From NCBI RefSeq assembly GCF_004010195.1, contig NC_057719.1, forward strand, positions 18,042,476-18,106,475: a stretch of DNA of 64,000 nt, read 5' to 3'. Of this stretch, positions 6,123 to 54,186 are shown in pieces. The notes beneath the pieces were generated by a model, which worked only from the letters and a program-made list of their open reading frames with translations, was not told the DNA's origin and did no database searches. The first letter of the stretch is position 1. Each line of letters opens with the position of its first letter. This DNA comes from Chiloscyllium plagiosum. Lineage: Eukaryota. Both the position numbers and the translations under genes were made by a program.

Positions 6123-8805
6123 TGCCCAAAGTGGAATACCAACTCCATTTATCTGTTCCCAATTCACTTCTGAATTCGAGGCCTAGTGAAATTTAAGAAT
6201 GGCAGGAGAATAGTTATGACTTCTAACCATAATGGACACAAAATTGCAGAGCAACTGCTATGTTCCCAGGCTTATGCAAGTGCATAGATTTAGCCAAAAT
6301 ACTATGGTCTTTTTCAAATCCTACTGAAAACTGTGGGTGACAAATATATGCAGAGATGCAGCCCACCAGAAATGGGCAAGCAGATACACTGCTCTCTGGC
6401 AGGTTCGGTTTGGGGGGAAAGCTGCAGTGAGGTGATGAAGGAAGTGGAGGAGAGTGCCTGGAAGAGGCTGGTAACAGGCCATACTATTCGATGGGTGGGC
6501 ATGAGACACTCCTATTAATCCTGGTCCCAGCCAAATGAAACATCATCATTCATCGTCTGTGCTTGTTTCAGGTAGGAGCACTATGGTCCAGTCACAGCAG
6601 TTTTCATATATATAGTAGACTTGCGAGTCAATCACCCCATCCTTACCTCCCCAAAGAGCCCCATTTTCCAAGAATCTGAGTGTAATTTTGGTTGACTCCA
6701 TTTTATTTTTTAATTACGATATGCTGACACAAAAGCCACCTTTTATCCTTGCATGTTCAAGCAACGCAAAGAGATGTCCCTTATATCTGACTGGGAAGTA
6801 AAGAGCCCATTGTCCCTAGATTTTCATTTTTTTTCCTTTTTTCAGAAAAAAATCTTAAGGTGTGGTGATGTTGACAGACTCTTGTCTCCTTGGGGCAGAA
6901 ATGTTGTTTTCCAGAAAGCCCTTTAATCTTTCTTTTTAAAAGATTTAATTTGAGGTGTCGCATTTGAGATCTGACATAAAAATGTTGGCTTTACCCTTGT
7001 TATGAAAGTGATAGGTTATACTAATATCACAGAAAAGTAAGGCTGAGTAACTCACAGTAATGACCCATTCCAGACCAGCTTAACTCCTGCATCATGGTTT
7101 ACAGCTATTGCATCTATTTCATAACAGGCATACAGACATGAAAACCCCTTTTATTGCTTTGACTGTCACTATACAGCTATTAAATTGTGTACAGAAACAA
7201 TGGGCCAAACGGCCTCGTTAGCAGTTCATCAACCTATGAGTCTTTTGTTTGCGTTCTGCAGACCATTCAGAACTGTCCACTTTGTACATGGAAAACAATG
7301 ATTTTTGTCTATTTGTATTTTAATTACAAACTTTTCCTGTTAATATGCCATTCACTGCACATTATTAAGATGCGTGCAACGTGCCAAGACTTTTTCCTTA
7401 TCATAGCTAACCATGACCCCAGCAAACAGAAAATATTTTGATGTGACAGAGCTATTGAGTGCCATGAAAACGTGACTAGTGTAGCATTATCTTTAATAAT
7501 TTTGTTGACCAAACGGCTTTGGCATGAGTCAAACACATAGGAATGCCTTGCCCCCATTAAAACAAAATAGCTGCTTGGTGTGCAGATGGGCAAGATTTTG
7601 CTACAATGCTAAATCCCACAGCATTTCCAGGCAGTCTACTGCAGAGAGAGATACATTACCCACCAGTCTAGTAACCTCAAAATATTTTGCAACTCCTGGT
7701 GATCTAAAAGTCAGTGCATTTGTTTCTCCTGTGGGTGGAGGTGATTTGATTCTGGGACAGGATCTGTACCTAATTTCAGGCGGTTTTAGGATGCAATACA
7801 CAGCTAACTACAGGTAGTCTAATGCTTGCTGTGTCTAATTTCTCTTGTGCTCCAGATGATTTTGGCACTGTCTTGCATTATCACAGGAGGGATTTGAAGA
7901 CATTACTTCCTTTTCCATAAATCTGATCTTCCACAATCTCTGGAAGAACTGTCTGTGAATTCCCTTTATATCCTTCCTCTGACTGAGTGTTAGTGATCAA
8001 AAGATTGGACTGACCCTGCTTCTTGTATCTTGTCTGCTGCTGACTCATTACAGAATAGATGTGGCGGATAAATTGTATATCGGAAGAATGAGATGCATAA
8101 CAGGTACAAGTGATCTGAATCTTCACTGGAATTTAGGGTGTGACATGGGTCTCACATTAGACAGAGGCAGATTTAATTTTGAGTGTAGTTACGTAGAATG
8201 TGTAACACAGAAACTACATTTTCACTCACTGAGCCCAGATATTTCACGTTCTGTACAAAGCTCCTCCCAGACCACTTCACCAAGCCTGAACAGAGTCATT
8301 GTCCAGCTTTTAGAGTCTGATTTTAATTCAGCCTCAGTGTGGTGAACCTAACCTTAAAGCAGGGTTTTTGCTCCATCAATCTCAATGTATGGGAATAGTT
8401 CAGCTTCTTCCTTAATACTTCCTCATGCAGTCTCTGGCATCATTTCGCTGAAGTCGAGGAAAACATTCCTACTACTGTCCTCTGTACCATTGGATTGAAA
8501 CAATTTGTTTTGGTGTAGAAACATTGATAAGTCAGAAGCCAAAGAAGCCTACAGGAAGTAAAAAAAATCAAGAGTGATCCCTTTAGCATAATCATTCAAT
8601 GCACCACCTTGGGATGTTGCAAGGCGTTTCCCAGTGCCTGGACATTTGCCTGGATGGGTGCAGCTCCAATAACACTCAGGAAGCTGACGCTATCCAGGAC
8701 AAAGCAGTCGGCTTGATTGGCACCACATGAACAAACACTCACTCCCTCCAAATGCGCAGCGACCGTCTACTAAGTGTACTGCAGATATTCACCAAGTCTC
8801 CTTAG

Positions 8806-9459
8806 TTAAAAGTCACACACCAGACTATAGTCCAACAGATTATAATACACACTCTCTCATGTGCACTCACATGCACACACTCAAGCACACACTCACATGC
8901 CCACCCTCACATTCTCTCTCTCTCTCTCTTCCTCCCTAAATGTGCATGCACACACGTAAGTCTATGCGGTGAATTTGCATTTGCAGAATTGTATTTGCTC
9001 AAAAAGCAAACAATCTGCAGGCAGTCAATCCATGTAACATTTTATAAATTCCTACTTTGGAAACAGAACCAGTCTCACTCAAGATTGGGATTCAGAGAGA
9101 CTCCAACTCCACTCTTTCAATACATTGTCTGAGTTGAGATGTCACTTTTTTTTTATCAAACTTTAAATTATCTCAAGAATGTGACTTAAAAGAAGTTCTG
9201 GGATTTATATATTAATGAATCAAAACCTACAACCCATTCTAAAAGATGAAAGATTTAACAGCAATCTAGATTTGTTCAATATATCATTTTAATTACATGA
9301 CACTGTGATCTTTGCCTTATGATCCTGCACCATTAGTTACCTGATGAAGGAGCAGCGCTCTGAAAATTAGTACTTCCAAATAAACCAGTTGGACGATAAC
9401 CAGGTGTTATGTGATTTTTAAACTTTGTCCATCCCAATCCAACATCGACTCCTCCACAT
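8806..9459 (+). mobile_element. PLE-like non-autonomous element, family C, with short 5' inverted segment and hammerhead motif
   Basis: Perfect 13-bp TSD CAAGTCTCCTTAG (8793-8805, 9460-9472). The 3' 120 bp match 28747-28868. The first ~45 bp are an inverted copy of ~9380-9422. Internal CA/TC-rich tract. Confidence 0.85.
9338..9372 (+). ncRNA. Putative minimal type I hammerhead ribozyme (family C variant)
   Basis: UAC-CUGAUGA-A-GGAGC-agc-GCUCU-GAAA-A-UUA/GUA. Conserved core present; helix I UAC/GUA; 5-bp helix II; palindromic helix III AAUU. Confidence 0.65.
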
Positions 9460-9824
9460 CAAGTCTCCTTAGACAGCACCTTCTGAACACATGATTGTTG
9501 GCATTTAGAAAGACAAGGGCTGTCGACACCATCATGGGAGCACCACCATCTTCAAGCTTCCCTCCAACCCCACACCATCCTGACATGGAAATCTATCACT
9601 GACCTTTCAGTGTCATTAGTGCAAAGCCTTGAAACTCCTTCTTTAATGGCTTTTGGGTGCACCTACAGCACATGGACTGCAGCAGTTTACTGTTATTTTC
9701 TCAAGGGCAACTAGGGACTGATGGTAAATGCTGGCCAGACAGTGATGTCCAAGTCCTTTGAATGCATTTTAAAAATTGTTCCTTTTTAAGGATACATGCT
9801 TTTCTTGAAACCGTAATTGGGTCA

Positions 9825-10800
9825 ACATTCATGTGCTGATAAGTGGCAGGTAATCTTCATTTTGTAAAAGTGCCAGGCCAAACTGTCTCACTTGACATTT
9901 ATCATTGTTGAATCCCTCAGTATCAATGTCCTCAGGGTTATTATTGACCAGAAACTGAACTGTACCCTGAGGCTACAAGCATAGGTCAGTGTCTGAGAAA
10001 CTCACCTCTTTATTCCCAAAAGCGTGTCCACCATGGACAAGGTTCAGGTCAGGAATATGGAGCTGTGGAGAGGGGGAAGTGGGGAGACCTCTCCACTTCC
10101 CTGTGTGTGAATTTTGGACAAATTTTAAGAAGGTCAAAAAAGGCTGAATAGCCAAGGTCTTTTTCCCAGGTTAGGGGAGTCCAAAACCAGAGGGTATAGG
10201 ATTAAATTGAGAGAGGAAAGATTTTAAAAGGGACCCAAGGGGGAACCTTTTTACACAGAGAGTTGTACAAGCTGCCAGAGGAAGTGGTGGAGGCTGGTGC
10301 AATTGCAACATTTAAAAGTATGTGGATGTGAACATGAATAAGAAGGGTTTAGAGGGATATGGGCCAAATATTGGCAAATACGACTAGATCGGTTTAGGAT
10401 AGTTGGTCAGCATGGGTGAGTTAGACTGAAGGATCTGTTTTCATGTTGTAAAAGAGTAATTGACTATCACTCTATCACAGTCCAGGACAAAGCAACCGAT
10501 TTGATCAGCACCCCACCCATCATCTTAAATAATCGTTCTTTTGACTGATAGACGAGTTACCGCAGTGTGTGCCATCTGTAAGATATACTGCAGCAACTTA
10601 CCAAGGCTCCTTTGACAGTACCTTCCAAAATCATGAACTCTACCACCCAGTAGGATGAAGCCAGCTTATGCATAGGAACACCACCAACTGCAAGTTCCCT
10701 TGGAGCCACACACCAACCTGATTTGGAATTATGTCAGTGTTCCTTCACTCTGACTGAGTTAAAAACCTGGAACATGTTTCTTAGCAGCACCATGAGTGTA
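9825..10800 (+). mobile_element. L2/CR1-superfamily LINE fragment (same family as 8636-9775), interrupted by a CR1 fragment
   Basis: TCCAGGACAAAGCAACCGATTTGATCAGCACC...GGAACACCACCAACTGCAAGTTCCC matches the 8690-9640 copy. Confidence 0.7.
10140..10470 (+). mobile_element. CR1 (HER1-type) 3' fragment
   Basis: Matches 2850-3180 (GAAGTGGTGGAGGCTGGTGCAATTGCAACATTTAAA). Confidence 0.9.
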
Positions 10801-11919
10801 CCTATCTCCCCCTCACCCTCTCCACCCCTCCCCACGGCCATTTGAAAGTGATCAACATGTGCTATTTTTCTCAGTGCTGCTCACATCATGAAAGCATGCT
10901 AAAAGGAAAATACTTTTGTCAACAGTAAAAATTGCATGGATCAATATGTTAGTAGTTACTTATCACTGTGTCACTTGACATATCAATATGAATGTTATTC
11001 CAATAATATCAGTAAATTTTATCCCCTTAGCATCCCCTCAACTTCCTCCTCCCCACCTCACCAAGGTGAATACACTCAAGATGCTGCATCTCACCATTCT
11101 ACCACAAAGTTATCTACTTAAACTTGATAAAGGTTTTTTCCTTGAACAGAAAATAGCACAAAAATATATAAAAAGGATTGGATATAGAGACTTAATGTTC
11201 AGGGCATAAAGTGTAATCCAAGAGTTAAGGCTTGCAGTTCATATTACATGCTGGATACTGTCAGGATTAAGAGAACAAGAGTAATCTCAGGAGAAAAAAA
11301 CAATCATAATGTGCTCATAAAGGTGGTAAAGATGTAAAATGGCACTAAAACCAAGAGGTGTGGCAGACAACTCAGCTCTTGGAATTAAGCCATCTAGTCA
11401 AGTGAAAAGCTGGTGTTATGTGGGTGTGGACAGAAAATAGTTTGCAATTTCCAATGTCTATTCATTTAAGAGGCACCTTTACTTAACAGGCTTTCAGTTA
11501 AGTTGGATCTATTGTGCCCCTTTTTGTTCAGTTGTTTCAGCTTTTACTAATGCAAGTTCATCTCTCATAAAATCGCTTCTTTCTTACTGATTCTTTGGCA
11601 AAACAAAATTGATCTTTGAGTGTTTGACATTATTGAGAGTGTAGTTTCTTGTACTGACAAGTCTGATATCTGACATTTATAGAAACACATACATAACTGC
11701 ACTTGAAACATTTTTTTGGAGATTGGGCCACCCGTGATTCCGCTGTAAGCGAGGCTTTGACAAAGTTAGGTTTCCCCGTTGGTGGCACAGTGAGAGTTGC
11801 CAAATCCAGGTCAAGCTCATTTCTGGACATTGTAACACAAGATCTCTTACCCCTGTCTGTTCTGCCCAATGCAATAGCCATTTTCTGAATCTCCTCACGT
11901 CACAATTATACACATAATT

Positions 11920-12370
11920 CAGAAGCAGAAGATTTGACCCTTCAACCCTGCTCCACATCACAATGAGATGATGGCTGAATGGATTGAGCATTCAAATGGA
12001 CTTTTCTGCCTGCCTCCTAATCCCAGGTTCCCACATAACACTTGACTCCCTTGTTGATGAAAGACTAACTCAGCCTTGAATGTACTCAATGATGTATTCT
12101 TCATTGCTCTCTGAGAATTCCACCAACTAACGATCCAATGAGAGGAAAAAATTCTCCTTAAAACATCCCAGCCTTAAATGGGAGACCCATTTTTAAATTG
12201 TGTCTCCTTGTTTTCATGTTCTCTACAAGTGAAACATCTTCCTAGTCACCTGCCTTGCAAAGTCCTGTTAGGGTTTTAGAGGTTTCAATGAGATCACTTT
12301 TCATTTTTCTGAACTGCAATCAGTATGTTCTTCCTTCAGAAAATAAGTTCTTCATCGCAGAAATCAGTAA
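11920..12370 (-). mobile_element. Old CR1 3' fragment
   Basis: Reverse-strand similarity to the older CR1 subfamily at 15860-16150 (CTCAGCCTTGAATGTACTCAATG, GAATTCCA, CCTTAAATGGGAGACC). Confidence 0.65.
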
Positions 12371-13153
12371 ATAACTTCCAGACATCTTTCTGACTAAGTA
12401 TTCAATGAATTTGAAATTTTAAAATATTCAATTGTATACTTGTCTCTGAGGATTACTTAAGTAGCATCCAAAAGGTTAATCTTTTAGTGATTGGAGACGC
12501 CAAGACAATTCTAGAAAGTTGGAAACTTTAATGGTCTTTATTTGTCTTTAAAGATACCCTGCCAAAATCCATCAGCGAGAAACAGAGTGAATAATCTTGC
12601 TGTCTGACTGTTTGAACATTGCGGATTCCCTGAACTGTGTATGCAAAGTGGAATCTTCTCATCCAACCATATTGACATGCTATTAATGTAAATAGCATGG
12701 CTAATTTGGAAGACATAGATAAGAGAAGCTTTTGCTGCATTGGATAAAATGTGATTCATTTTGGACAATTGTCAAAGAAAATTTATTTCAATTTTGGGTT
12801 GATCCAGAAAACAAATACATATTCGAATCCAGATGAAACCTGATACAGAGAATTCAGGTCTTTATGGGGAAAAAATTGAACAGTGTTCATCAATTCACAA
12901 CTGACCGTAGCTACCTTCTGAACAGATTATGCAAATACAAACCTTTTAATGGTAAACCAATGAATGTGCCTAATGCTTAATTGAACTCTTTCAAATTCTG
13001 AATTCTTGTTTGGATTGGGACTTGTCCTCCCCTGGGAGGCATCAGGTTCTGTAGAAGGTGAGGGAGAATTAAGAAGACTTTCCGTGTTTATTGAGCAATT
13101 ATTAGACCATAGATCAAATATATAAAATATGAATGCTTGTTCAATTTGGAATA

Positions 13154-13315
13154 CAGTGCTTTCACCATAGAGTCCTATGTGCAGGGACTATTTCATTCGG
13201 TTAATCGAATGCCAGATAACATAGTTTAGCCAAGCATCGGGACCTTGCAATCTTGCCGGTTATTCTGATATTTGGATAAATATCTGATATTTGCCAGATA
13301 ATTGAGGTTCCATTG
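13154..13315. mobile_element. Possible Tc1/mariner (Tigger-type) MITE relic
   Basis: Flanked by TA on both sides (TA-CAGTG...CATTG-TA). Right end reversed reads CAATGGAACCTCAATTATC, a Tigger-like terminus. Left TIR is poorly conserved. Confidence 0.4.
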
Positions 13316-13474
13316 TAAGCTTTGGTTGAGGAATATGATAAAGATTTGTATTATTATTGAAAAATATCTTCTGTGATTTTCTGACTTTTTGCAAAAATCA
13401 GATGGATAGAAGGAATCACCTTCTCCTCCATCTGAAAACATTTTGCATATATTTGCTTGTTCAGTGAACCAAAA

Positions 13475-13845
13475 TCTTGCTCAGATATTTTTCATAAGGG
13501 CACTGGTTGCTTCGTTGCTGCTGAAACCTGCAGTAAAAAGCAAGCATCCTCATTTCTGACCTTATAATGGATAGAAGGACATTGAAGAAGCAATTGAAGA
13601 TTGTTAGGTCTAAGACACTACCCTGAAGGACTGCTGCAGATATATCCTGGGGTTGAGATAATTGGTCTTCAACCATCTTTCTTTGTGTTTGCTATGACTC
13701 TAGCCAAAAGAGTTATCTCTTGATTACAATGGGTTTCCATTATACTCGGACTCCTTGATGCTATACACTGTCAAATGTTGCCTTGACATCAATGGCAACC
13801 ATTTGCACCTTAGCTCTGGGTTTCAGTTCTTTTCAACTAAGACTA
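13475..13845 (-). mobile_element. L2/CR1-superfamily RT fragment
   Basis: ORF 13461-13676 contains AVLQGSVLDLTIFNCFFN, a decayed GVPQGSVLGP motif. Confidence 0.75.
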
Positions 13846-13854
13846 TGCAAGCAC

Positions 13855-14805
13855 TCTACTTGTTGTCATTTACATAAATGATTTGAATGCAGGCATTAGA
13901 GGTACAGTTAGTAAGTTTACAGATGACACCAAAATTGGACAGCGAAGAAAAATACCTCAGATTACAACAGGATCTTGATCAGATTGGTTAATGGGATGTG
14001 AAGTGGCAGATGGAGTTTAATTCAGATAAATGCGAGGTGCTGCATTTTGGGAAAACAAATCTTAGCAGGACTTGTACACTTAATGGTAAGGTCCTAGGGA
14101 GTGTTGCTGAAAAAAGAGATCTTGAAGTGCAGGGTCATAGCTTCTTGAAAGTGGAGTCACAGGTAGATAGGTTAGTGAAGAAGGCATTTAGTATGCTTTC
14201 CTTTATTGGCCAGAGTATTGAGTACAGGAGTTGGGAGGTCATGTTGTACAGAACATTGGAGTACAGGAGTTGGGAGGTCATGTTGTACAGAACATTGGTT
14301 AGGCCATTGTTGGAATATTGCATGTTGTGAAACTTGAAAGGGTTCAGAAAAGATTCACAAGGATGTTGCCAAGGTTGGATAATTTGAGCTATAGGGAGAG
14401 GCTGAACAGGCTAGGGCTATTTTCCCTGGAGCGGCGGAGGCTGAGGGGTGACCTTATAGAGGTTTACAAAATTATGAGGGGCTTGGGTTGGGGGAGTCCA
14501 GGACTAGAGGGCATAAGTTTAGAGTGAGAGAGGAAAGATATAAAAGAGACCTAAAGGGCAATGTTTTCACACAAAGGGTGATACGTGTATGGAATAAGCT
14601 GCCAGAGAAAGTGGTGGAGGCTGGTACAATTGCAACATTTAAGAGGCATTTGGATGGGTATATGAATAGGAAGGGTTTGGAGGGATATGGGCCAGGTGTT
14701 GGCAGGTGGGACTAAATTGGGTTGGGATATCTGGTCGGCATGGACGGGTTGGACCGAAAGGTCTGTTTCCATGCTGTACATCTCTTTGACTCTATGACTC
14801 TATGG
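13855..14805 (+). mobile_element. CR1 (HER1-type) LINE, RT C-terminal half to 3' tail
   Basis: SKFTDDTKIG, KWQMEFNSDKCEVLHFG, LERVQKRFTRMLP, and (CTCTATGA)n tail. Internal 39-bp tandem duplication at 14220-14297. Confidence 0.95.
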
Positions 14806-14892
14806 CTGAAGCCAAATGGTCCTGACAGAAATCGCATTCAAAGTACATGCCAGTGTGTGCCTTGGAAGCTATGCTTTGAAAATCTGTTGATA

Positions 14893-16160
14893 GCACAAAG
14901 ATAGACAGGAAAGTAATGTGTGAGGAAAGTATGAGGTGGCAAAAATCTTTTGAGAGATAGGCTAAGTGTGTGAAAACAGATCTGCCAAATGGAATACAAT
15001 GTGGGAAGATGAAATATTATCTATTTTGGCAGGAAGACTGAAAAAGAAACATATTAGCTAAATGGTGAGAGGTTGAGAGTTCTGAGATGAAGAGGGATTT
15101 GGGTGTTCCAGTACATGAATCACAAAAGGATAGTCTGCAGGTATGGCAAGTGATTCAGAAAGCTAATAGGATGCTATTATTAACTGTAAGAGGAATAAAA
15201 GACAACAAGAGGGAGGTCCTGTTCAGTTATAGAGAGCACTGGTGGGCACCACATCTCGGTACCATGCGCAATATTGGTCACCTTACTTATCAAAGGATGT
15301 AAATGCAATTCAGAGCAAGTTTTCCAGACTAATACCAGGTATGGGTGACTTGCATAACAAGGAGAGATTCTACAGACTCGGCTTGTATTTGCTGGCAGAA
15401 GAACGCCTCACCTTCCACCTTGGGACCCTTGAACCACCCAGCAACAACGTTGATTTCACCAGTTTCCTCATCTCCCCTCCCCCTATCTCATCCCAGATTC
15501 AAACCTCTAACTCGGCACCACCCTGTTGAACTGCCATCTTCCTTCCCATCTATCTGCTCCACCCTCTATTCCGACCTATCACCATCACCCCCACCTGCAT
15601 CCACCTATCGCCTTCCAAGCTACCTTTTATCCTAGCTCCACCCTTCTATTTATCTCACAGCCCACTTGGGCCATCCCCACATTTCTGATGAAGGGCTTAT
15701 GCCTGAAACATCAATTCTCCTACTCCCCTAATGCTGCCCAATGTGCTGTGCTTTTCCAGCACCGCACTTTTTTTGACTCTAATCTCCAGCATCTGCAGTC
15801 CTCACTTTCTCCTTGTATTTGCTCCTGTTTAAAAAGCAACAGGTTGCTTGACTGAAACATAATAAATGGGTCTTGACAGGATAGATGTAAAAATGCTGTT
15901 TTCTCACAGGAGAATCATGAAGTAGGGATTACTGTTAGAAAATAAAAGATCTCCCATTTAAAACAGAGTAAGGTGAATGTTTTTCTCAAAGAGGGCCATG
16001 AAACATTCATTCTCTCCACCTGAAAAAGCAGTGGAAGTGGACTCTTTAAATATATTTCTTGTTTAGCAAGGAAATGAATGGTTATCAGAAATAGACAGGA
16101 ATGGGGATTTGTGGTTGCAATCAGATAGCCATGACCTTATAAAATAATGGAGACAGGTGC
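14893..16160 (+). mobile_element. Older CR1 fragment interrupted by a Penelope-like insertion
   Basis: KRDLGVPVHESQK and QYWSPYLSKDVNAIQSKFSRLIPGM; the element resumes after 15812. Confidence 0.85.
15394..15811 (+). mobile_element. Penelope-like element 3' end (GIY-YIG C-terminus plus family A pLTR with hammerhead motif)
   Basis: Peptide EERLTFHLGTLEPPSNNVDFTSF resembles the C-terminus of vertebrate PLE GIY-YIG domains. A pyrimidine-rich spacer follows, then CTGATGA-A-GGGC-TTAT-GCCT-GAAA-CATC at 15685-15712. Perfect 12-bp TSD CTTGTATTTGCT (15382-15393, 15812-15823). Confidence 0.85.
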
Positions 16161-16287
16161 AACACAAGATCTTTTCTTTGGGTAGGGAATGGAGGCAGTC
16201 CCAAATCCATTCCAGATTGAAACCCATGCTGTTCAAATCAATCAGTTAGCTGAACCAATTCCTAAATATTTAAATTGCTGTGGCCAC

Positions 16288-16835
16288 ATTTACAGGACAT
16301 TAGTTAGGCCACCTTTGGAATATTGCATGAATTCTGGTCTCCCTCCTATAGGAAGAGGGTGTTGTGAAATTTGAAATAATTCAGAGAAGATTTAGGAGAA
16401 TTATGCCAGGGTTGGAGGAGTTGAGCTAGAGGGAGAGGCTGAATAAGCTGGGGCTATTTTCCCTGGAGCATTGGGGGCAGAGGGGTGACATTATAAAATC
16501 ATGAAGGGCATGAATAGGATAAATTGACAAAGTCTTTACCCTGGATTCTAGAGGAGATAGGTTTAAGATGAGAGGGGAAAGAACTAAAAGGGACCTCAGG
16601 GGCAACATTTTCATGCAAAATGTGGTGCATGTATGGCAGGAGCTGCTAAAGGAAGTGGTGGAGGCTGGTACAATGAAACATTTAAAAGGCGTCTGGATAT
16701 GCATATGAATAGGAAGGGTTTAGACAGATATTGGCCAAATTCTGTCAAATGGAACTAGATTGTGTTAGGATATCTAATCGGCATAGTTGAACTGAAGGGT
16801 CCATTTCTGTGCTGAACATCTCTATGATTCTATGA
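16288..16835 (+). mobile_element. CR1 (HER1-type) 3' fragment
   Basis: YRTLVRPPLEYC... through to the CTCTATGATTCTATGA tail. Confidence 0.9.
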
Positions 16836-16838
16836 GGA

Positions 16839-16972
16839 CCTCATTCCCGATGAAGGGCTTATGCCCGAAAGGTCGAATCTCCTGCTCCTTGGATGCTGGC
16901 TGACCTGCTGTGCTTTTCCAGCACTGCACTCTTGACTTTGATCTCCAGCATCTGCAGTCCTCACTTTCTTCC
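16839..16972 (+). mobile_element. Short PLE-derived element, family A
   Basis: ATTC-CCGATGA-A-GGGC-TTAT-GCCC-GAAA-G-GTC-GAAT (helix I ATTC/GAAT; core U4 mutated), then the family body ending GCAGTCCTCACTTTC. Confidence 0.85.
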
Positions 16973-17099
16973 GTACTAGAAATGTCCAGATTGCTTGAAG
17001 TGAGCACATTGAGGAAAATAGAATGGGTAGGATTCCATGCTCATAAGAAAGTTTTGGGTAATTTGGTGGTTCATTTATATGGATGAGGGATCAGGCAAT

Positions 17100-17500
17100 A
17101 TCACTTATAGCCATGTCATCCTCACGACATCTGACTGAGATGTTCCATTTCATGAGGGGAGTATAGATCAAACAGGGAGAAAATAAAAATCTAATGCTAA
17201 AAGGATCAAGAAATCGGACGTACAGATGCACAGTAATTGGCAAAAGAAACAGTGGAAACATGAGGGAAAGCATGTTCACATGGTGAGGAGTCAAATCTGG
17301 AGGGCACTGCCTGAAAGTGTGGAGGCAGCAGACTCAATTGAGGCTTTCAAAAGGGATGTGGATGATTATCTAATAAAAAACTAATTTGCAGGGCTACAGG
17401 GAAAAGGCTGGGAGTGGCATGGGCTGAATTACCCCTCCAGAGGACTAGCACCGACAGTCTGCCAAATGACCTCCTTATCTGCTGTAACTATTCTGTGACT
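17100..17500 (+). mobile_element. Old CR1 3' fragment
   Basis: TGGAGGGCACTGCCTGAAAGTGTGGAGGCAGCAGACTCAATTGAGGCTTTCAAAAGG (W.ALPE.V..A.SI.AFKR), with tail CTGTAACTATTCTGTGACT. Confidence 0.7.
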
Positions 17501-18059
17501 CATCATATATCAACCAACTTTTCTATAAGTAATCCTCTGCAGTTCTTCCATTTCATCAGCTCTATTACTAGTCACCTTATGGTATTGAACAGTAGCTTTA
17601 ACATCAATCCAGAAGACCATTAAACCAAGTCAGCAGTTGAAAACATGGAACTCACTGCCACTTCTCTCACATTAGTGTCAAGTACCATCCAATATGTAGG
17701 TCTCCTCTAATTTGGGTTGACAATGTCTATGAAAATAATACTGCCATAATGAACACAATCTCATGTGTCCTGCTAAAAATGGCAAGTGCCTGGTAAGCTG
17801 CCAATCAAATGAACCATTCTCTTTCCAGTGAATATGATTCTATGGTACAAACAATCTTGAATAACTGGTGAGCAAGGGGTTATATTCCAATAACAGGAGG
17901 ATTTGGGACGTTGGCTCAGTTCCCAGATTAGCAAGGCCAGGTCCTCTGGTAAATTGTCAAGTTTTATTTTGTCTGGACTACAGTTCAAAGTATGCTAATT
18001 TCTGAATGTTACTATCTGCTTTGCGCTTCTTGAGTTAAAAATTTTCTTTCTGTGTGAAT

Positions 18060-18450
18060 GTCCGCTTGGTTGTCTGCCTGTCTGATTGTCTACCTAATAT
18101 GTTTTCAGGCATTTTACATTGCTCCATTTGTTAAAAACAGACAGATGAATAATTGCCAACATTCTGCCAGTAGCGTTCTTGACCTGATTGATGGCTGTCC
18201 TAGGTTGGCCAAGGGTGATTTGCTTGCTGATTTCCACTACCCCTTGAGTGGGGACCTGCCTGATCCCATTCACCATTTCCCCTTGATAGAACATTTGAGG
18301 TCAGGAATTCATGGTGAGGGATATAACATTGTCATTCTGGTGCAGCTCCATAAAAGGGTCTTGAAGAGCTGCCAACTTTCAGAGCTGACGATTGTCAGGT
18401 CTTCGGGGAATTCTCATTCATTTACAATGGTACACATATTCAAATAGGTG
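18060..18450 (-). mobile_element. Possible highly decayed RTE-type LINE C-terminal fragment
   Basis: Minus-strand translation PQMFYQGEMVNGIRQ...WK loosely resembles the RTE motif PK.llyGel..G.R..GRP..RWK. Several stops. Confidence 0.25.
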
Positions 18451-18894
18451 AGACCACGATATCAGCCTCATGAATTAGCTTTCAATGTGCACAGTTATTG
18501 TGGGTAATAGCAAAATTAAACTCAGATACTTAATCAGATTCTGTATGCATATGAAGTAACACAGAAATCAACAGCAGGTTAATCAGCATGTGAAATGGAA
18601 TGAAATTGGTCCCTTCAGATCTATCATTTCCTCAATACTATGTCAGACATGGACCATGCAAAGTAGCAGAACAGGAGAAACATAACAATTATGCTTCTTC
18701 AGAGTGTTGAAAGGAAAAAAAATCATTAATGCATGAACAAGAATTCATGGAGGAACTCTTAATGAGATTGAACAAAGCGCATGCCACTCATCCAGAGAAG
18801 AGGCAAGCTTTGTTGTAACCTACAGGACAAACATAAACTCAAGAGGCGTGAATGGCCTCCTCTGTGTTATGCATGACCTTATTTACCTTAAACT

Positions 18895-19235
18895 TACATG
18901 GGATGCTGTTGCCACTGGCAAGCCGGTGTTGCCTAACTGAGTGAATTGCTGGGCCATTTCAGAGGGCACTTAAGAGTGAAACACATTGCTATGGTTCTGA
19001 AGTCACCTGTAGGCCTGACCAAGGATATCAGATGTCCTTCCCTGAGGGAATTAGTGAATTAAATGGGTTTTGTACAACAGTCAATGACAGGTTCATGCTC
19101 ACAATCAGTGAGTCTAACTTTACATTCCGGCATTATTAATTGAATTTAAATTCCACAGGCTGTTGTGGGAGGATTTGCATCAGAACTATGAACATTAGCT
19201 TCAATGGGCTTCTGGATTTCTAATTCAGTTACATT
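18895..19235 (-). mobile_element. SINE with L2-like tail (family of 3555-4050)
   Basis: TTAAGAGTGAAACACATTGCTATGGTTCTGAAGTCACCTGTAGGCC matches 3630-3680. Confidence 0.7.
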
Positions 19236-19242
19236 GCACTGT

Positions 19243-19565
19243 GCCTCAGTGGTTAGTACTGCTGCCTCACAGCACCAGGGATCCTGGGTTCGATTCCAGC
19301 CTTGGGTAACTGTCTGTGTGAAGTTTGCACATTCTCCCTGTGTCTGTGTGGGTTTCCTCTGGGTGGTTGGATTTCCTCCCACAGGGTAGGTGGATTGGCC
19401 ATGCTAAATTGCCCATAGTGTCCAGGGATGTGCAGGCTAGGTGGAGTAGCCATGGGAAATGCAGGGATATAGGGATAGGGGTAGGGGTGTGGGTCTGGGT
19501 GGGATGGTCTTCAGAGGGCTGGTATGGGCTGAATGGCCTACTTCCACACTGTAAGGATTCTATTG
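19243..19565 (+). mobile_element. HE1-like tRNA-derived V-SINE
   Basis: Pol III A/B-box head (CAGTGGTTAGTACT...GGTTCGATTCC), V-domain (TGTGTGAAGTTTGCACATTCTCCCTGTGTCTG) and CR1-like tail (GGATTCTAT). Confidence 0.9.
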
Positions 19566-19759
19566 CATGACTATATTCCTTACAGTAACTCAGTGACTAG
19601 CTCCCATTGTCAGCGATAGACAATATGATAGGTGGAAATAGGAAGAATACTCAAAACATGTTACCAGCTCAGAGTGAGAACTAAACTGTCAGCAACGTCT
19701 CTCTAGTCTTTTCTTTCGACTCAACAAAAACAACAAGGAGCCATTTCCACTGCCATGAC

Positions 19760-20030
19760 AATTGACGGACAAAGATTACAGATTGAAGGTGAGCAGCAAA
19801 AAAAATCAAAAGAAAGATGAGGATTTTTTTACAAAAGGATTTGTTTTCATCTGGAATGCACAGCCTTAAAGATTGGTGGATACAAATTCAAAAGTGGTAT
19901 TTAAAGAGGAATTGGCAAATTAATTAATTAAGAATATGTTCCGGGGAAGGGTGGGGTCTGGGACTAATTGAATAGTTCGACCAAAAGGCCAACAAAGACA
20001 CCGTGGACAGTATGGTGTTGCTTTACCATC
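19760..20030 (+). mobile_element. Old CR1 3' fragment
   Basis: TCTGGAATGCACAGCCT...TTTAAAGAGGAATTGG, the WNALP...FKREL region. Confidence 0.6.
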
Positions 20031-20604
20031 GTTTGATTTTTGTTGTTGAATGACCTGTTGTAAATTGCTGGCATTTTTCTTCCATCAGAACTTCAGCTGT
20101 CACAGACTTCTTTTTAATACCTGAACATGTGAGCTGGAAGGTGAAATGTTCATGTTGAATGCCTTCTCTAGGGAAGTGAGAATAGGTCTCACATTACAGT
20201 AAGCATGTGCTAAACCTGTCCTAAGATTTATTGTATCTATCTTTCACAAAGAAGGAAAACCCTCTAATTTCCCACACTGCGATGGCTCACCTTAATGATG
20301 CTGAATGCCTGAATTCAAACCTTTACCTGATTCCCACGTAAGGGTTGGTTATCTGTAACAGTTGGCTCACTTATGGGGAGTGAATCATAACTCCTGGAAG
20401 ATGAGTAAGCACAAACAATCTCCAAGTTTTTGGCACAAGACCATTAAGAAACGAAGTGTGTAAGAATGAGTCAGAGCCTGATTATGACAGGATGACGGCT
20501 GCACTATTGTATTGAAATACCATTGAAGCAAACAGGTGGCTAAATGCGAATTAGTGTCCCTCCTTTCAAATGTCTCAGTTGACCACAATAAAGATTTATG
20601 CTTG

Positions 20605-21050
20605 AGTCATGGAGTTATACAACACAGAAACAGACCCTTTGGTCCAACTCATCCGCGCCGATTAGCTATCTTAATCTGATCTAGTCCCATTGGCCCATAT
20701 TCCTCCAAATTCTTCCTACTCAAGCAGCTATCAAGATGCCTTTTAAAAGTTGTAATTGTACCTACCTCCACCACCTCCTCTGACAGCTTGTTTCATACAC
20801 TCATCACCCTCTGTATGAAAATGTTGCTTCTCAGGTCCATTTAAATCATTCCCCTCTCACCTTAAACCTATGCTCTCTAGTTTTGGACGCCTCCCTCTCT
20901 GGGTAAAGGACCTTGGATACTCACCCTATCCATGGCCTTCATGATTTTATAAATCTTTATAAGGTTAACCCTTAGTCTCCGATGCTCTAGAGAAAAAGCC
21001 CTAACCTATTCAGTCTGACCCTGTAGTTCAAACCGTCCAATCCCAGCTTT
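20605..21050 (-). mobile_element. CR1 (HER1-type) 3' fragment
   Basis: Reverse complement of the 2740-3190 sequence. Confidence 0.9.
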
Positions 21051-22496
21051 GTTTTCAGCACAAACAGAAGCTAAAATGACATCCAATTTAAAGTAATTAA
21101 GTATCATTCGAGATAGAACAAAGAACAATACACCTTTCAGCCCTCCAAGCCTGCACTGACACATTTTGACTTACCATACTAAAATTCCACTTATGGGATC
21201 CATATCACCCTATTCCTTTCCTATTCATGTATTCTTCCAGGTGCTTCTTGAATGCTGCTATTGTGTCTCCTTCCCACCATCTCCTCTTGCAGCGCGTTCC
21301 AGGCATTCACCACCCTTGGCGTGAAAAACATGCCTCGCACATCTCTTTTAAATGTGCCCCCCCGAACCTTGAACCTGTGTCTCCTAGTTTCCCTGGGAAA
21401 AAGCCTCATACTTCCCACTCTATCCATGCCATTCACAATCTTATAAACTTCTACCAGGTCGCCCCTCAATGCCCTGCATTCCAGTGAAAAGAAGTCCAGT
21501 CTATCCAACCCTTCTTCATAGTAAAAATCCCCTATACTCGGCAACATCCTGGTGAATCTTTTCTGTGAATCCTCTCCAAAGCATCCATATCTTTCTAGTA
21601 GTGTGGTGACCAGAACTGTACACAATATTCCAAGTGTGGCCTAATTAAAGTTCTATAAAGCTGCAGCATAACTCAATGCCCCTTCAAATGAAGGCAAGAA
21701 TGCCATAGGCCTTTGTTACAACCTTATCTGTCTACACTACTAAGGGATCCTTGGACCAGCACACTCAGATCCCGCTGCATATCAAGGCTCCTAAGGGTTC
21801 TGCTATTCACTGTATAATTTCCATCTGTATTTGACCTTTCAAAATGCATCACCTCACATTTGTTTAGATTAAACTCCGTCTGCCATTTTTCTGCCCATGC
21901 CTCCAACTGATCTATACCCTGCTGTATCCTCTGACAATCCTCCTCATCAATCTTTGCATCATTTGCAAACTTACTAATTAGATCAACTACATTTTCCTCC
22001 AAATCACTTATGTAGACCATGAACAGCAGAGGTCCCAGCACTGATCCCTGTGGAACACCACTAGTCATAGCCCTCCATTCCAAAAAGCATCCTTCCACTA
22101 CTACCCATGACTAAGCCAGTTCTGTATCCATCTTGCCAGCTCACCCTTGATACCATGTGACTTCACCTTTTGTACCAGTCTGCCATGAGGGAACTTGTCA
22201 AAGATTTTGTTGAAGTCCAAGTAGACAACGTCAACCGTTTTTCCCTTATCAATCCTTTACATCACCTCAAACAAGTTAGTGAGGCATGACCTCCCTCCCA
22301 CAATTAAATTCTGCCTATCACTAGTCAGTCTACTTACTTCTAAATGTGTATAGATCTTATCCCTGAGAATCTTTTCCAATAATTTCCCTACCACTGATGT
22401 AACGCTCTCAGGCATGTCACTTCCTGGATTATCACTGTTACCCTTTTAAACAATGGGACAATATTATATATTCTCCAGTTCTCTCTGACCTCACTT

Positions 22497-24110
22497 ACAT
22501 AGAACATAGAACATAGAAGAATACAGCGCAGTACAGGCCCTTCGGCCCTCGATGTTGCGCCGATCCAAGCCCACCTAACCTACACTAGCCCACTATCCTC
22601 CATATGCCTATCCAATGCCCGCTTAAATGCCCATAATGAGGGAGAGTCCACCACTGCTACTGGCAGGGCATTCCATGAACTCACGACTCGCTGAGTAAAG
22701 AACCTACCCCTAACATCTGTCCTATACCTACCCCCCCTTAATTTATAAAGCTATGCCCCCTTGTAATAGCTGACTCCATACGTAGCAAAAGATTCTCACT
22801 GTCGACCCTATCTAAACCCCTAATCATCTTGTACACCTCTATCAAGTAACCCCTACACCTTCTTTTCTCCAATGAAAACAACCCCAAGTGCCTCAGCCTC
22901 TCCTCATACGATCTTNNNNNNNNNNNNNNNNNNNNNNNNNNNNNNNNNNNNNNNNNNNNNNNNNNNNNNNNNNNNNNNNNNNNNNNNNNNNNNNNNNNNN
23001 NNNNNNNNNNNNNNNNNNNNNNNNNNNNNNNNNNNNNNNNNNNNNNNNNNNNNNNNNNNNNNNNNNNNNNNNNNNNNNNNNNNNNNNNNNNNNNNNNNNN
23101 NNNNNNNNNNNNNNNNNNNNNNNNNNNNNNNNNNNNNNNNNNNNNNNNNNNNNNNNNNNNNNNNNNNNNNNNNNNNNNNNNNNNNNNNNNNNNNNNNNNN
23201 NNNNNNNNNNNNNNNNNNNNNNNNNNNNNNNNNNNNNNNNNNNNNNNNNNNNNNNNNNNNNNNNNNNNNNNNNNNNNNNNNNNNNNNNNNNNNNNNNNNN
23301 NNNNNNNNNNNNNNNNNNNNNNNNNNNNNNNNNNNNNNNNNNNNNNNNNNNNNNNNNNNNNNNNNNNNNNNNNNNNNNNNNNNNNNNNNNNNNNNNNNNN
23401 NNNNNNNNNNNNNNNNNNNNNNNNNNNNNNNNNNNNNNNNNNNNNNNNNNNNNNNNNNNNNNNNNNNNNNNNNNNNNNNNNNNNNNNNNNNNNNNNNNNN
23501 NNNNNNNNNNNNNNNNNNNNNNNNNNNNNNNNNNNNNNNNNNNNNNNNNNNNNNNNNNNNNNNNNNNNNNNNNNNNNNNNNNNNNNNNNNNNNNNNNNNN
23601 NNNNNNNNNNNNNNNNNNNNNNNNNNNNNNNNNNNNNNNNNNNNNNNNNNNNNNNNNNNNNNNNNNNNNNNNNNNNNNNNNNNNNNNNNNNNNNNNNNNN
23701 NNNNNNNNNNNNNNNNNNNNNNNNNNNNNNNNNNNNNNNNNNNNNNNNNNNNNNNNNNNNNNNNNNNNNNNNNNNNNNNNNNNNNNNNNNNNNNNNNNNN
23801 NNNNNNNNNNNNNNNNNNNNNNNNNNNNNNNNNNNNNNNNNNNNNNNNNNNNNNNNNNNNCTTCTCTACATGCCTCAAAGCCATCCATTCTACTTAATTG
23901 TGTCTCAGTACTCACATTGACAACAATGTCCTGTTCCTGATTGAATACTGACGAAAAGTATTCATTCAGTGTCTCCCCAATCTCTTCAGCCTCCACACGC
24001 AACTTCCCACTACTATCCTTGACTGGACCTATTCCTACCCTAGTCATTCATTTATTCCTGACATACCTATAGAAAGCCTTAGGGTTTTCCCTAACCCTAC
24101 CAACTAAGGA
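22497..24110 (-). mobile_element. Younger CR1 LINE, nested, spanning the assembly gap
   Basis: (CATAGAA)n tail at 22498-22519 and a CpG-rich 3' end related to 40050-40137. Beyond the gap, GPVKDSSGKLRVEAEEIGETLNEYFSSVF matches ORF2 at 38390-38500. Confidence 0.9.
22916..23860. other. Assembly gap (945 N)
   Basis: Run of N. Confidence 1.
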
Positions 24111-26559
24111 CCTTTGTGGCCAAAGAGGATACAAAGATGTCTGTCAATGCTCTAGCAATTTGTTATCTTGCCTCCCTCAATATTCTGGGATAGACCGCAA
24201 GAGAACCCAGGGACTTATCTGTCTTAATACCTTTTAAGATGCACAACACCTCTTCCTTTTTAATAACAACTTGACTTGGAAATTAGACACTTCCTTCCCT
24301 GAGATCATCCTCCACCAATTCCTTTTCTTTGGAAAATTTGGTCATTTAAGAACTCACCTACCTTTTCTGGCTCCACAGTAAGGTTTTAAACTGAGACTGT
24401 GGTTGTTAATTGATGTCTCATATTCTCAGGATTAGTAAATATTTCAGTTGTCCTTTAACTTCTTGGTGGCCAGAAGTTTAGCTCCAATTTGTTCCCAGGT
24501 GCTTTGTCCTTTGAGAGAGTTTTAGAGAGCTTTCTCCAGTGTTTTTTCATTCACAGAATTACCTCCTCTGCTTTGACAGCAGCAGTTGCCTGAAAAACAG
24601 AAGGATTGTGTATTCCAATGTCTGAGCTCCTTGTTCCCAAGTTTTATACTCTAGTAGGCAAAATCTTACTTCTCCAACATATGAAACTTATCAAACAGGT
24701 GTAAATTAAAATAGGAGAAAAGAAAGTCTTCATGCCTGAGTTTCAGTACCTTTTGATGAAAAGTTAATTTCAGTTCTGGTGAGTTTATTGCACTTTGGCT
24801 TTATAAAGCTCATCTAATGTATGTGGTCAGCTGTTCATGCTGACCATCTTAAATCTGTAGTTATTTTCCTTTTTAAAAATACTTTCATCCATCAAGGTCA
24901 GTGTACTAAAATTGGATCACATAATTTTAAAATCAACAATCAATTTTTATATCACTGTTATGACACCATAAAAAAGTTTCAGAAATCATCATCTTTCACA
25001 GTTAGCATGCATGGCTGGTATGTAGCAGAAAAATATCACATTTCTTGACTTCATCTTGCATTTATTGTAAACCATCCCTAGACACCTTTCAGGAATATAA
25101 TCAGACAAAACAAAAATGACATTAGGATAGATAAGTAACAGCTTACTCAACGTGATAGCTTTCAAGGAGAGATAGATATTAAGGAGAATTTTAATCAAGG
25201 AAGGAAGCAGAGAGTTGGAGATCTTCAGGGAGAAATTTACAAAAAAAAACTACCACAAGACCACTATGGTGAAGGATATAGGAGGAACATTATTATTATT
25301 GGACTGAAACCTGTTTTTTCTTATTTCTGTTGTCATTGCTTTACACTGGAATTGCAAGTGGAATTGTCTCTACACTATCCTTGTCCTTCTAAGTAATAAA
25401 ACACTCTACTTGAATGTTTTATTAATTATTCTGTACAAACTATGCAGAAAACTGAAGACATATTGATTCTTGAGGATCAAGGTATGGCAGTTAGAGATGC
25501 TTAATAGCGAACTTTTGTTTTTTTCTCATGGAAATGAAAGTAAGCTTATGCTTCATCAGAAAGAACTCAATCATAAAATAGTTCTTCACAGGTAGAACTG
25601 AACTGAATTGAAAGACTAATGTCTGCTCTTTGTTGGATTTTCTCGTGTAAATGTAATATTGATCTTTCTTTCCCCTTAAGAAATATTCAACACCCGAACA
25701 TCACTGATATTTCTACATTGATTAGGGAAATTGAGAAATGTTTTGATCTTTGAGATGCTGATGAATCTATGAAACAGCATTTCTATTTTTGTTTTAAACT
25801 ATGTCCCCATCCCAGAATTGTCCCAGTTCAATACTCAGCTTGCAATAGATTATAGACAGAAAAAGATTTTTAAACAAAAAACAAATGCTCTCTAGAGAAA
25901 ATACATAGGTGTGCAGCATACACGCAGGTAAGATTAAAATGAAGTTTGTCACAAAAATGAACCAATTGAGGGGAATTCACTGTGAAATATTAGCTATTGT
26001 GCGCAGTCACGATGCACTTCTAATTGTAATATACTTAAGTCTATGTAATGCTAAGAAGACTACAACCAAAGCTTTTGCCAGATGGGACAACCTAGTAAAG
26101 ATGAAGTGATCCCAATTATTAAATCATTGACATTAAGCAAAATGATGTTGCACTGATTAAAGAACATTGTGGATTAATTGATACTTCAAAATATATCCTT
26201 TTATTAAGGAATATTCAATGTATTCCGATTTCTATTGATGTCAACTTTAATTTGATTTTTGGACTCATTGTATTAATTGAAAAATATTTGAAGAATACAT
26301 ATCTGAGAGTTGAAATGGCTGTGCAATTTGCAAATTGTTAAAATATTGATTGTTTAAACTCTGTGCAATCTTTCAAGTAACAGAACATTAATCATCCCAC
26401 AGGAACAATAGCAAGTGAGACAACGGACAAAAAAAAAATCAAGCTCATTACAAAACTTTAATCCTACTTTTATTAAATATCCTGCAGGTACAGTGCTGGA
26501 ATCTTCATTCTACTAATTGTTTAGGGAAATGCGATATTTTTTCTAGCTGCTATTTCTGC

Positions 26560-26705
26560 AATTTGAATTTGATTATTTGATTTGATTTGATTTAACTTGA
26601 TTTATTATTATCACATGTACCTAAGTAAAGTGAAAAGTTTTGTTTCGTGCTCAGTATAGACAGATCATAGCATAAAAGGACATGCAAATCTTAGAGTAAC
26701 TAAAC
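26560..26705 (-). mobile_element. LINE 3' tail with (TCAAA)n microsatellite (Rex1/Babar-like)
   Basis: Minus strand ...CTTTTCACTTTACTTAGGTACATGTGATAATAATAAATCAAG(TCAAA)n. Same architecture as 50330-50430. Confidence 0.55.
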
Positions 26706-26848
26706 AGTGAGGCTTACAAAGTACAGACTTAGAATAGAGGTTTAAATGGACGATTGCGAGAAATGCGACAATAAGACCTGCTACAGAGACCTCTCAAAGA
26801 GTCACCCTCTGTCAGCACCAACTTGAACCGCTCCCTTTTATTTTGTTG

Positions 26849-27048
26849 GTAGAAAGTGAGGACTGCAGATGCTGGAGATCAGAGTCGAGAGTGTGGTGCT
26901 GGAAAAGCACAACAGGTCAGGCAGCACCCAAGGAGCAGGAGAGTTGACATTTCAGGAATCCTGATGAAGGGCTTATGCCTGAAATCTCTGTTCTCCTCTC
27001 CTGTTGCCTGACCTGCTGTGCTTTTCCAGCACCACACTCTTGACCCCA
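26849..27048. mobile_element. Family A element, fold-back form
   Basis: Reverse arm 26851-26955 is joined to a forward arm starting GAATC-CTGATGA-A-GGGC-TTAT-GCCT-GAAA. TSD TTTATTTTGTTG (26837-26848, 27049-27060). Confidence 0.9.
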
Positions 27049-28650
27049 TTTATTTTGTTGTCTGCATTTCAAACTTACACATTGATCAGGAACAAAGAAT
27101 GCATTGCAATTAAAGTTATAGGTATTGGTGTCTGCACAACACACTGAACACGTTACAAACATTTTACAAAAATAGACCCTGAATTTCCTGCAAATGCTTT
27201 GTATGAGCTCACACAAATCTCTATTTCAATCCACCTCACTCCTGAAAACAGCTGTGAAATAAATAATCAAACACCTGGCTTTCTTAGTGGTAGCTGTTGA
27301 TCTGGATTCCAGATTTGCTCATTGGTTCTTCCTCAAAATAGTTCCCTGGAATTTTTTTTACATCATTCTGAACGGACAATGATTGCTTGTTTTAAATGTG
27401 CTGTAACCCAGTGAGGGAGGATGAACCAGCTCCCCGCTTTTCAAACTCCTTGGTTGACTACAATAGATTTGGCTCACTTCAGTTAACAAAAAATGGCCTT
27501 AATTAGTTCACCTGAAACAATCTAACAGCTAATTTCAAGGTTTTCTTCAGTGAAAGAAATGTGACTTTTATAACTTACTAACCTTGGGAAAAAGTATTAA
27601 AGATGCGACATCAAATGCACGCACAGACAATGGTACAATGCGGGAAAGAAAAGGAAAGACTATAACATGGAACTTAAAGTCTTTAGTGTGCACTGGATGT
27701 GTAAGGTGTTATCCTTAGAGCAGAGTTGGTCAGCAGTGTTTTGGATTAGCAGCAGCTGTGAATTTTACAAATAACTTTGAGTGCTTGGTATTAAGATGCT
27801 TCTCCAGTTTGTGCTGTCAGTGATTGCTTTGTACTTGTTGAGTGAAAGCAGATAAAGAGTGAGAGAAAGCAAGGGAGAGACCTTCTCCCTGTACCAGTTA
27901 TAAATCCATCTCACTTCCTTCTGTCAAAAGCAGTTGTTTGAAACACAGTTGATTCACATGTTCCCATGTTTGGGTTTATTGTCTCCAAACTGGATAACTG
28001 TAGATGATTATTTGATATCCAATGTATGAACTTTTGATAAAATTATAATCATGGAAGAGGTACAGATCTCTGTTATCAATTTCTTTGAAAACATATTAAT
28101 TTCAGTTCAGACTGATTCTAGTTTATTGCTGGTTTCATGAAACTTGACACAACCAGTGGTCAGATGATTATTGCGGCCATTTTTAATCCAGTACCTTTCT
28201 CTATCTGAAATGATTTCACAAAGACCAGTACTTGGGCCTTAGCTGGCCACTATATATATCAATAATTTGGATAATCAGGCTAATTATAATCTTTCTCAAT
28301 TTCCAGGTGACTCCATAAGACTGAGGAGTAGAAGTAGTCCATTCAGCCCATTGTGTTTTCTCCACCATTCAATGAGAGCATGACTGATCTGATATTCTTC
28401 AATTCCATTCCTGCCTTTTCCCCATTACCCATGATTCCCTTACTGATACAAAGTTGAATGGGAATGATTGGTGGGGTAGACTGATGGACTGAAAAATCTA
28501 CTCTTGTTCTTATATTCCCAAGTTGCAATTGCAGTCCGTGAATGTCCGATGATGTTTATCAAAAATTCGTTGTCTGTATTGCATCACTATTGTAACAAAT
28601 ATCACGGTCGAGAGACAGCAACTCCAAAATTGCAGCAGTCTTTCAGCAGT

Positions 28651-28868
28651 TAAAAAATCACACAACACCAAGTTATAGTCCAACAGGTTTAATTGGAAGC
28701 ACACTAGCTTTCGGAGCGACGCACCTTCATCAGGTGGTTCCACAAGCACCTGATGAAGGAGCGGTGCTCCAAAAGCTAGTGTGCTTCCAAATAAACCTGT
28801 TGGACGATAACCTGGTGTTGTGTGATTTTTAACTTTGTACACCCCAGTCCAGCATCGGCATCTCCAAA
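28651..28868. mobile_element. Family C element, fold-back form with hammerhead motifs on both strands
   Basis: ~85-bp inverted arms (28651-28736 and 28747-28832) with a ~10-nt spacer. Perfect 12-bp TSD TCTTTCAGCAGT (28639-28650, 28869-28880). Confidence 0.9.
28702..28736 (-). ncRNA. Putative minimal hammerhead ribozyme (family C)
   Basis: CAC-CUGAUGA-A-GGUGC-guc-GCUCC-GAAA-G-CUA/GUG. Core intact; helix I CAC/GUG; palindromic helix III AGCU; one mismatch in helix II. Confidence 0.7.
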
Positions 28869-43818: not shown

Positions 43819-43910
43819 ATTCTGGATCAGTGGTGCTGGAAGAGCACAGCAATTCAGACAGCATCCGATGAGCAGGAAAATCGACGTTTCAGGCAAAAGC
43901 CCTTCATCAG
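43819..43910 (-). mobile_element. 92-bp family A element inserted in CR1 ORF2
   Basis: Perfect 13-bp TSD GATCTTTGAGGGG (43806-43818, 43911-43923). Explains the foreign peptide PDEGLLPETSIF...LIQN between two PLKD copies in ORF 43741-44196. Confidence 0.95.
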
Positions 43911-53882: not shown

Positions 53883-54186
53883 AGTGAGCTTTGAGAAGAT
53901 TTGTAGCTTAAGTTGAGGTTCTGGATGTGGGTTTACTCGCTGAGCTGGAAGGTTCATTTCCAGACATTTCGTCTCCTTACTAGGTAACATTTTCAGTGGG
54001 CCTCAGACGAAGCACTGCTGAAAATTCCTGCTTTCTATTTGTATGTTTTTAAAATATATTTACATATAAATAGAAAGCAGGAATTTTCAGCAGTGCTTCG
54101 CCTGTGGCCCACTGAAGGTGTTACCTAGTAGGGTGACAAAACGTCTGGAAATGAACCTTCCAGCTCAGCAAGCAAACCTACATCCA
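53883..54186. mobile_element. Fold-back dimer of the family D Penelope pLTR (two degenerate hammerhead motifs)
   Basis: Arms 53922-54046 and 54062-54186 are reverse complements and match 57431-57590. Degenerate TSD TAGT(CG/TT)GGTGTT (53871-53882, 54187-54198). Confidence 0.9.

Follow-up and report, generated by a model that had tools for sequence, protein, structure and literature searches.

The window, a stretch of 64,000 nucleotides of Chiloscyllium plagiosum DNA that was analysed as a whole, contains three hammerhead motifs, located at 9338-9372 (+), 28702-28736 (-) and 28747-28781 (+). Each motif begins with three helix I bases and CUGAUGA, followed by an additional A, a helix II of 5 bp, GAA, a palindrome of four bases, H17 as the cleavage base and the closing three bases of helix I, with positions named according to the standard hammerhead numbering. 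The first motif reads TAC, CTGATGA, A, helix II, GAA, AATT (9365-9368), A and GTA, while the other two both combine CAC/GUG with AGCU; the minus-strand copy has an intact core and one helix II mismatch, and the plus-strand copy carries a G12>A change of the catalytic guanine at 28771. These letters, on which a preliminary description of the window had been based, were confirmed from the sequence. The four differences it listed between the first motif and the other two are all transitions (C>T or G>A), AATT corresponding to 9366 G>A plus 9367 C>T. Over the full 35-nt motifs, 8 of 35 positions differ, compared to the four listed earlier, the additional ones including G12>A (28771), C11.1>T (9361) and the helix II mismatch of the minus-strand copy.

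The first motif lies within a 5'-truncated 3' end of a Penelope-like element (PLE), comprising pseudo-LTR and tail, which spans about 8845..9462 (+) and belongs to an old subfamily, S4. This insertion matches 12 listed loci over 560-664 nt at 74-81% identity, and its locus (tree row L031) falls within the old clade. Upstream of it, with approximate edges, an inverted short piece of the element 3' tail without a hammerhead is found at 8801..8838 (-), corresponding in reverse complement to the tail at the 9338 element. The other two motifs belong to an inverted pair of element ends, with a young-type left arm (28648..28739, -) bearing a TG insertion after the cleavage site and a right arm with a long tail (28744..28873, +). 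As these two motifs occupy the two arms of a single inverted repeat (87 nt, spacer of 4 nt), predicted to fold as a long hairpin, they are probably not independent insertions. Divergent inverted pairs of this kind are common (64 among 246 loci). Similarity among copies extends upstream for up to about 1 kb, and their 3' ends fall into two classes, about 57-61 or 96-105 nt downstream of the motif. Of the features of EN+ PLEs, 5' truncation, an inverted 5' copy and an optional tail are present. Two of three stop-free stretches scanned gave weak matches to the GIY-YIG profile (PF01541): that in L140 (E 2e-4, 22.1 bits, just under the Pfam cut-off of 22.6) is on the same strand as the motif and 486 nt upstream of it, and that in L102 has no motif downstream within its locus. 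The profile scan of L133 gave no match, and a stretch in L091 with two stops within it is presumably GIY-YIG-like, judging by its motif.

Each of the three is a minimal type I hammerhead located at an end of a Penelope-like retrotransposon, a kind already published, and on the basis of its sequence a predicted ribozyme. The core elements CUGANGA, GAAA and UH, together with helices I and II, are found in the majority sequences of all six element subfamilies (S6 to S1, see below). Other characteristics were assessed in a tail-selected sample, for which 100 copies were chosen by the tail alone and 65 with an ungapped motif were retained, the remaining 35 being excluded for indels, truncation or a TG insertion. 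The extra nucleotide between A9 and 10.1 is A in 62 of these 65 motifs, and the G10.1-C11.1 pair is present, with C11.1 changed to T at a CpG in 18. A degenerate 35-letter pattern gave 17,342 matches in the 3.56-Gb genome and none when reversed as a control; the palindrome at 15.2-16.2 is AGCT in 16,549 of these copies. In another hammerhead family the palindrome is ACGT (21 of 34 descriptor matches), and such a difference between families follows the published pattern. The Rfam hammerhead models gave no match at gathering score within the window. The ATG inside the core opens a frame that is closed by a stop after eight codons.

Many genomic copies have decayed, the core being intact in 21 and broken in 44 of the 65 tail-selected motifs. 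G12>A was found in 2,883 copies genome-wide, and C11.1>T at the same CpG is similarly frequent (20 of the first 100 pattern matches, corresponding to about 3,500). If there was selection, it acted on the source elements and not on the inserted copies. The preliminary description had also pointed to the unchanged CUGAUGA, but its constancy is an ascertainment effect and no evidence in this regard, because the copies were selected by CUGAUGA.

Covariation was evaluated at the outer helix I pair, 2.3/1.3, which among the 17,342 copies is C-G in 15,535, U·G in 1,173, U-A in 320 and C·A in 314. The 320 U-A copies compare to 54.6 expected (odds ratio 13.5), although hundreds of these copies descend from one or two events and the tiny p-values therefore overstate the case for helix I; the C·A mismatch, at 2.0%, is close to the background G>A rate of 2.2%. 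Two disjoint sets, tallied by hand, gave the same association: U-A, U·G, C·A and C-G numbered 5, 9, 6 and 80 in the first 100 listed of the 2,883 G12>A copies (odds ratio 7.4, p=0.007), and 41, 7, 3 and 49 in the first 100 listed of 899 copies with H17=U (odds ratio 96). In the tail-selected sample the association was weak (5, 15, 4 and 33; odds ratio 2.75, p=0.25).

Among 83 TAC copies, chosen regardless of their 3' base, GTA was found in 8 of 12 with an S4 flank, 5 of 20 with an S3 flank, none of 16 with an S1 or S2 flank and 5 of 35 that were unassigned. The A at 1.3 was shared by the neighbouring arm in 11 of 16 cases for UAC/GUA, 1 of 6 for CAC/GUA and 3 of 22 for UAC/GUG, where pairs with both arms matching were counted twice. 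The sharing of GUA along flanks and between neighbouring arms indicates that the older subfamilies carried it in their source RNA. A hypermutable CpG as the origin of GTA was ruled out, as the G is preceded by T in every majority. Three marks of a compensatory change are accordingly found at 2.3/1.3, namely enrichment of the double change, a mismatch at background level and inheritance from the source, with the tail-selected sample giving a weak signal. The predicted duplex energy of UAC/GUA is near 0 kcal/mol. The helix I swap had been proposed to represent the state of active source elements and not a private variant of the 9338 copy, and this is borne out: UAC/GUA is a source-element state common to hundreds of copies that covaries genome-wide.

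The helix III palindrome, for which the same had been proposed, behaves differently. Besides the AGCT copies, the pattern matches comprise 373 AACT, 406 AGTT and 14 AATT, so that 779 single mutants breaking the pairing stand against 14 AAUU copies, where 9.4 would be expected under independence (odds ratio 1.5, p=0.13). The same excess of 1.5-fold was seen at unpaired control sites (7 copies among the first 100 listed, against 4.5%), as would be expected from a mixture of copy ages. L098 and L101, two of the 14 copies, are duplicates. Six AATT rows, scattered across subfamilies, need six changes on a 102-row tree, which was built with the test sites masked from those of 352 copies that had at least 130 nt of upstream element. 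None of six divergent neighbouring arms of AATT copies carries AATT (five have AGCT and one AGTT), one of these arms being of another subtype and one lying 412 nt away, and AATT was found in 0 of 65 tail-selected motifs. At 15.2/16.2 the combination of marks seen at 2.3/1.3 was not found, and these two positions show no covariation.

It could still be argued that both pairs are compensatory and that an active source element carried UAC/GUA together with AAUU, given that Watson-Crick pairing is kept in both pairs at 9338, that AAUU reaches 1.5 times its independent expectation, that all four states recur in one further copy (L103) and that a second species has identical letters. We regard this as very improbable. 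Copies with all four states number 2, against about 1.1 expected among the 320 UAC/GUA copies, 11 of the 14 AAUU copies carry CAC/GUG, and all six subfamily majorities have AGCU. Furthermore, the AAUU self-duplex is predicted to be unstable (+2.2 kcal/mol, compared to -2.5 kcal/mol for AGCU), and shared letters are to be expected between two species that are about 97% alike at the 9338 locus (9 differences in 322). AAUU is thus likely to represent two chance transitions that followed insertion of the 9338 copy. Dating of the change from other individuals was attempted and abandoned, as matching runs do not time it; a run from organism A is identical to the window over 9357-9459, and two from organism B, each with a 40-nt piece, are identical over 9347-9386. 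We infer that the 9338 copy combines a subfamily state, UAC/GUA, with the post-insertion changes AAUU and C11.1>U (9361). The overall proposal that the fold was under selection is consequently supported for helix I, where covariation is above chance, and not supported for helix III, where the count is at chance level and the AAUU variants have scattered, private origins.

The history of the helix I pair was followed through the subfamilies. Of 524 copies, 255 could be placed by markers in their flanks (in S6, S4/5, S3, S2 or S1, with S4 and S5 then split on H17); the 524 copies were pooled from targeted searches and their numbers do not represent frequencies. Downstream divergence is 1.9% in S1, 5.7% in S2, 7.2% in S3 and 6.9% in S4, and the end branches of S6 are 0.19-0.27, while the ages of S2-S5 on a quick tree (9.9-16%) are noisy and not separated. 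From S6 to S1, the majorities at 2.3/1.3 are C-G, U-A, U-A, U·G, C-G and C-G, and never C·A, with S3 being a mixture of U·G and U-A. Across the six majorities, a single one of 28 constrained motif positions is variable (a CpG site), compared to 6 of 7 free motif positions, 49 of 74 upstream positions, for which the S6 majority rests on four copies, and 16 of 90 downstream positions, the downstream DNA being conserved too (p=0.07 against the motif). A fourth helix I pair in S6 was not retained. S6 and S5 were found by motif-bearing patterns, which could miss lineages with an altered core.

When the test sites are masked, the best tree has S6, a C-G subfamily, next to S5, a U-A subfamily, and implies two swaps of the pair. 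Placements with one swap gave p-AU values of at most 0.006, the nearest of them having p-KH 0.069 and p-SH 0.21, and placements of S6 with S3 or with S4 were not rejected. AU tests on a 42-row quick tree rejected nothing and were uninformative, the free search having missed better trees. The small number of independent events, the moderate support for the two-swap tree and the terminal, weak nature of the 2.3/1.3 pair would all fit a simpler account, in which two neutral changes in one source lineage happen to pair and the covariation is due to shared descent; chance would also give a U·G intermediate half the time. This account nevertheless appears unlikely, since pairing at 2.3/1.3 is kept in six of six majorities, the S6 placements not rejected by the AU test all require at least three pairing-compatible changes, and other source changes in the motif are confined to loop II, H17 and N7. 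We slightly favour a reading of the six subfamilies as successive source lineages in which the outer helix I pair was swapped twice and only tolerant positions changed. Taken together they would then form a dated fossil record of a single ribozyme, pointing to lineage-resolved, continuing selection in vivo on Penelope hammerheads, although these were dispensable for insertion in vitro.

Source elements probably succeeded one another from S6 to S1, the outer pair walking from C-G through U-A and U·G back to C-G without a C·A lineage. By analogy with what has been proposed for this motif class (PMC4209133; PMC6765202), two motifs in a source transcript probably pair via the AGCU palindrome into a dimer that is cut after H17, and sources in which the outer helix I pair is mismatched would be under-represented among the successful lineages. 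Neither insertion in the window would permit such dimer cleavage, one carrying a single motif and the other two motifs in opposite orientation. Counting against this mechanism are the very weak pairing predicted for UAC/GUA, an alternative stem formed with the flank that is predicted to compete with helix I in S3-S5, and the unimpaired insertion in vitro of hammerhead mutants of an anole element (PMC11167929). The alternative stem also raises the question of whether part of the walk was mutational: in S4/S3 the 5' flank (CACUAGCU) and the cleavage region are complementary to each other, and template switching within the resulting quasi-palindrome could have driven the changes U>A at H17 and A>G at 1.3 in the absence of any selection on helix I. 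Both changes perfect the complementarity of the flank, and the alternative stem of 7-8 bp is the predicted lowest-energy fold of L133 and L228 and is calculated to exceed helix I in strength in S3-S5. Template switching however leaves unexplained both the difference between S6 and S5 and the restoring change at 2.3, a U>C that makes the alternative stem weaker, and we consider this origin quite unlikely. With good confidence, the three motifs in the window can be described as decayed copies, in which UAC/GUA is an older helix I likely kept paired by selection on the source and AAUU likely arose by chance after insertion.

The motif class and compensatory variation within it had already been published, and half of the earlier claim for this locus is real. 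A general caution follows for families whose decaying copies number in the tens of thousands, where chance yields seemingly compensated double transitions that can be exposed by counting single mutants and neighbouring arms. Minimal hammerheads (min-HHR) have been described in the pseudo-LTRs of metazoan PLEs by Cervera and de la Pena (2014; PMC4209133), and, as far as the available part of that paper goes, the motifs studied here agree with them in the type I layout, the extra base between A9 and 10.1, the G10.1-C11.1 pair, the palindromic 15.2-16.2 positions and the occurrence mostly as lone copies with some opposite-strand pairs. Helices I and II are 3-4 and 5 bp here, compared to 4-5 and 7-8 bp in the Schistosoma example of the same paper, whose available part follows no base pair from subfamily to subfamily and names no shark. 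A literature search, with most subscription papers and supplements outside its reach, found no work dealing with changes in helix I at subfamily resolution or with the PLE hammerheads of sharks.

The insertion anatomy resembles that of EN+ PLEs in the accessible portion of Craig et al. (2021; PMC8557442), with 5' truncation, an inverted truncated 5' copy and a tail of 30-40 bp, and no difference from that account was found. Whether hammerheads help or parasitise PLEs is left open in the same portion; the subfamily series bears on whether the hammerheads serve the element, and it provides natural variants that could be compared by cleavage assay. Poseidon PAc of Anolis carolinensis, according to the sections available of PMC11167929, has an ORF starting at stem II and a hammerhead shown to cleave, whereas the hammerhead described here is predicted from its sequence, and hammerhead mutants of the anole element were not impaired in insertion in vitro. 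The two elements are alike in carrying a hammerhead in the pLTR and in having two alternative 3' ends that differ by the tail.

The oldest subfamily of the Penelope-like element, S6 in the inferred succession of source elements from S6 (old) to S1 (young), had the hammerhead core CUGACGA. C at the variable core base N7 was retained in 9 of 25 S6 copies, and in some of the remaining copies the CpG that it forms had instead undergone the G>A change (loci bearing on this core: L368, L385, L387-L389 and L391). In subfamilies S3-S5, the 5' flank is predicted to pair with helix III and the cleavage region over 7-8 bp, forming a stem stronger than helix I, as exemplified by the stretch at 9330-9372 in the window and by the genomic loci L133 and L228. 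On the basis of this predicted pairing, the ribozyme would be shut off in the monomer.

Subfamily markers were discordant between the two arms in 9 of the 36 inverted pairs among the loci analysed, to be read against the roughly half of random pairs that differ at each marker. The arms of the window pair (28648-28873) were unlike in loop II and at one tail base. Arm discordance would be explained by two RNA templates per insertion or by a later insertion into an old copy. Some young-subfamily copies with helix I UAC/GUG (L147, L151, L135 and similar loci) lie at inversion junctions with 1-nt spacers, and their U may therefore be a junction product. The window also holds near-perfect inverted repeats at 53922-54186 (125 nt, 90%, 15-nt spacer) and 60359-61697 (176 nt, 93%).

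Further hammerheads in the window, at 15685, 26961, 32014 and 45708 (+) and at 43910 (-), belong to a second family, in which helix II has 4 bp and the palindrome is of the ACGT type. A third, small family, seen at genomic loci (5 matches), has a longer helix II, lacks the extra A and has CCA/UGG as helix I.

The branch-like run of the element tail lies close to the end point of many copies. At 9415-9440 and 28825-28850, this tail has an apparent likeness to a branch point, a pyrimidine run and a CAG 3' splice site.
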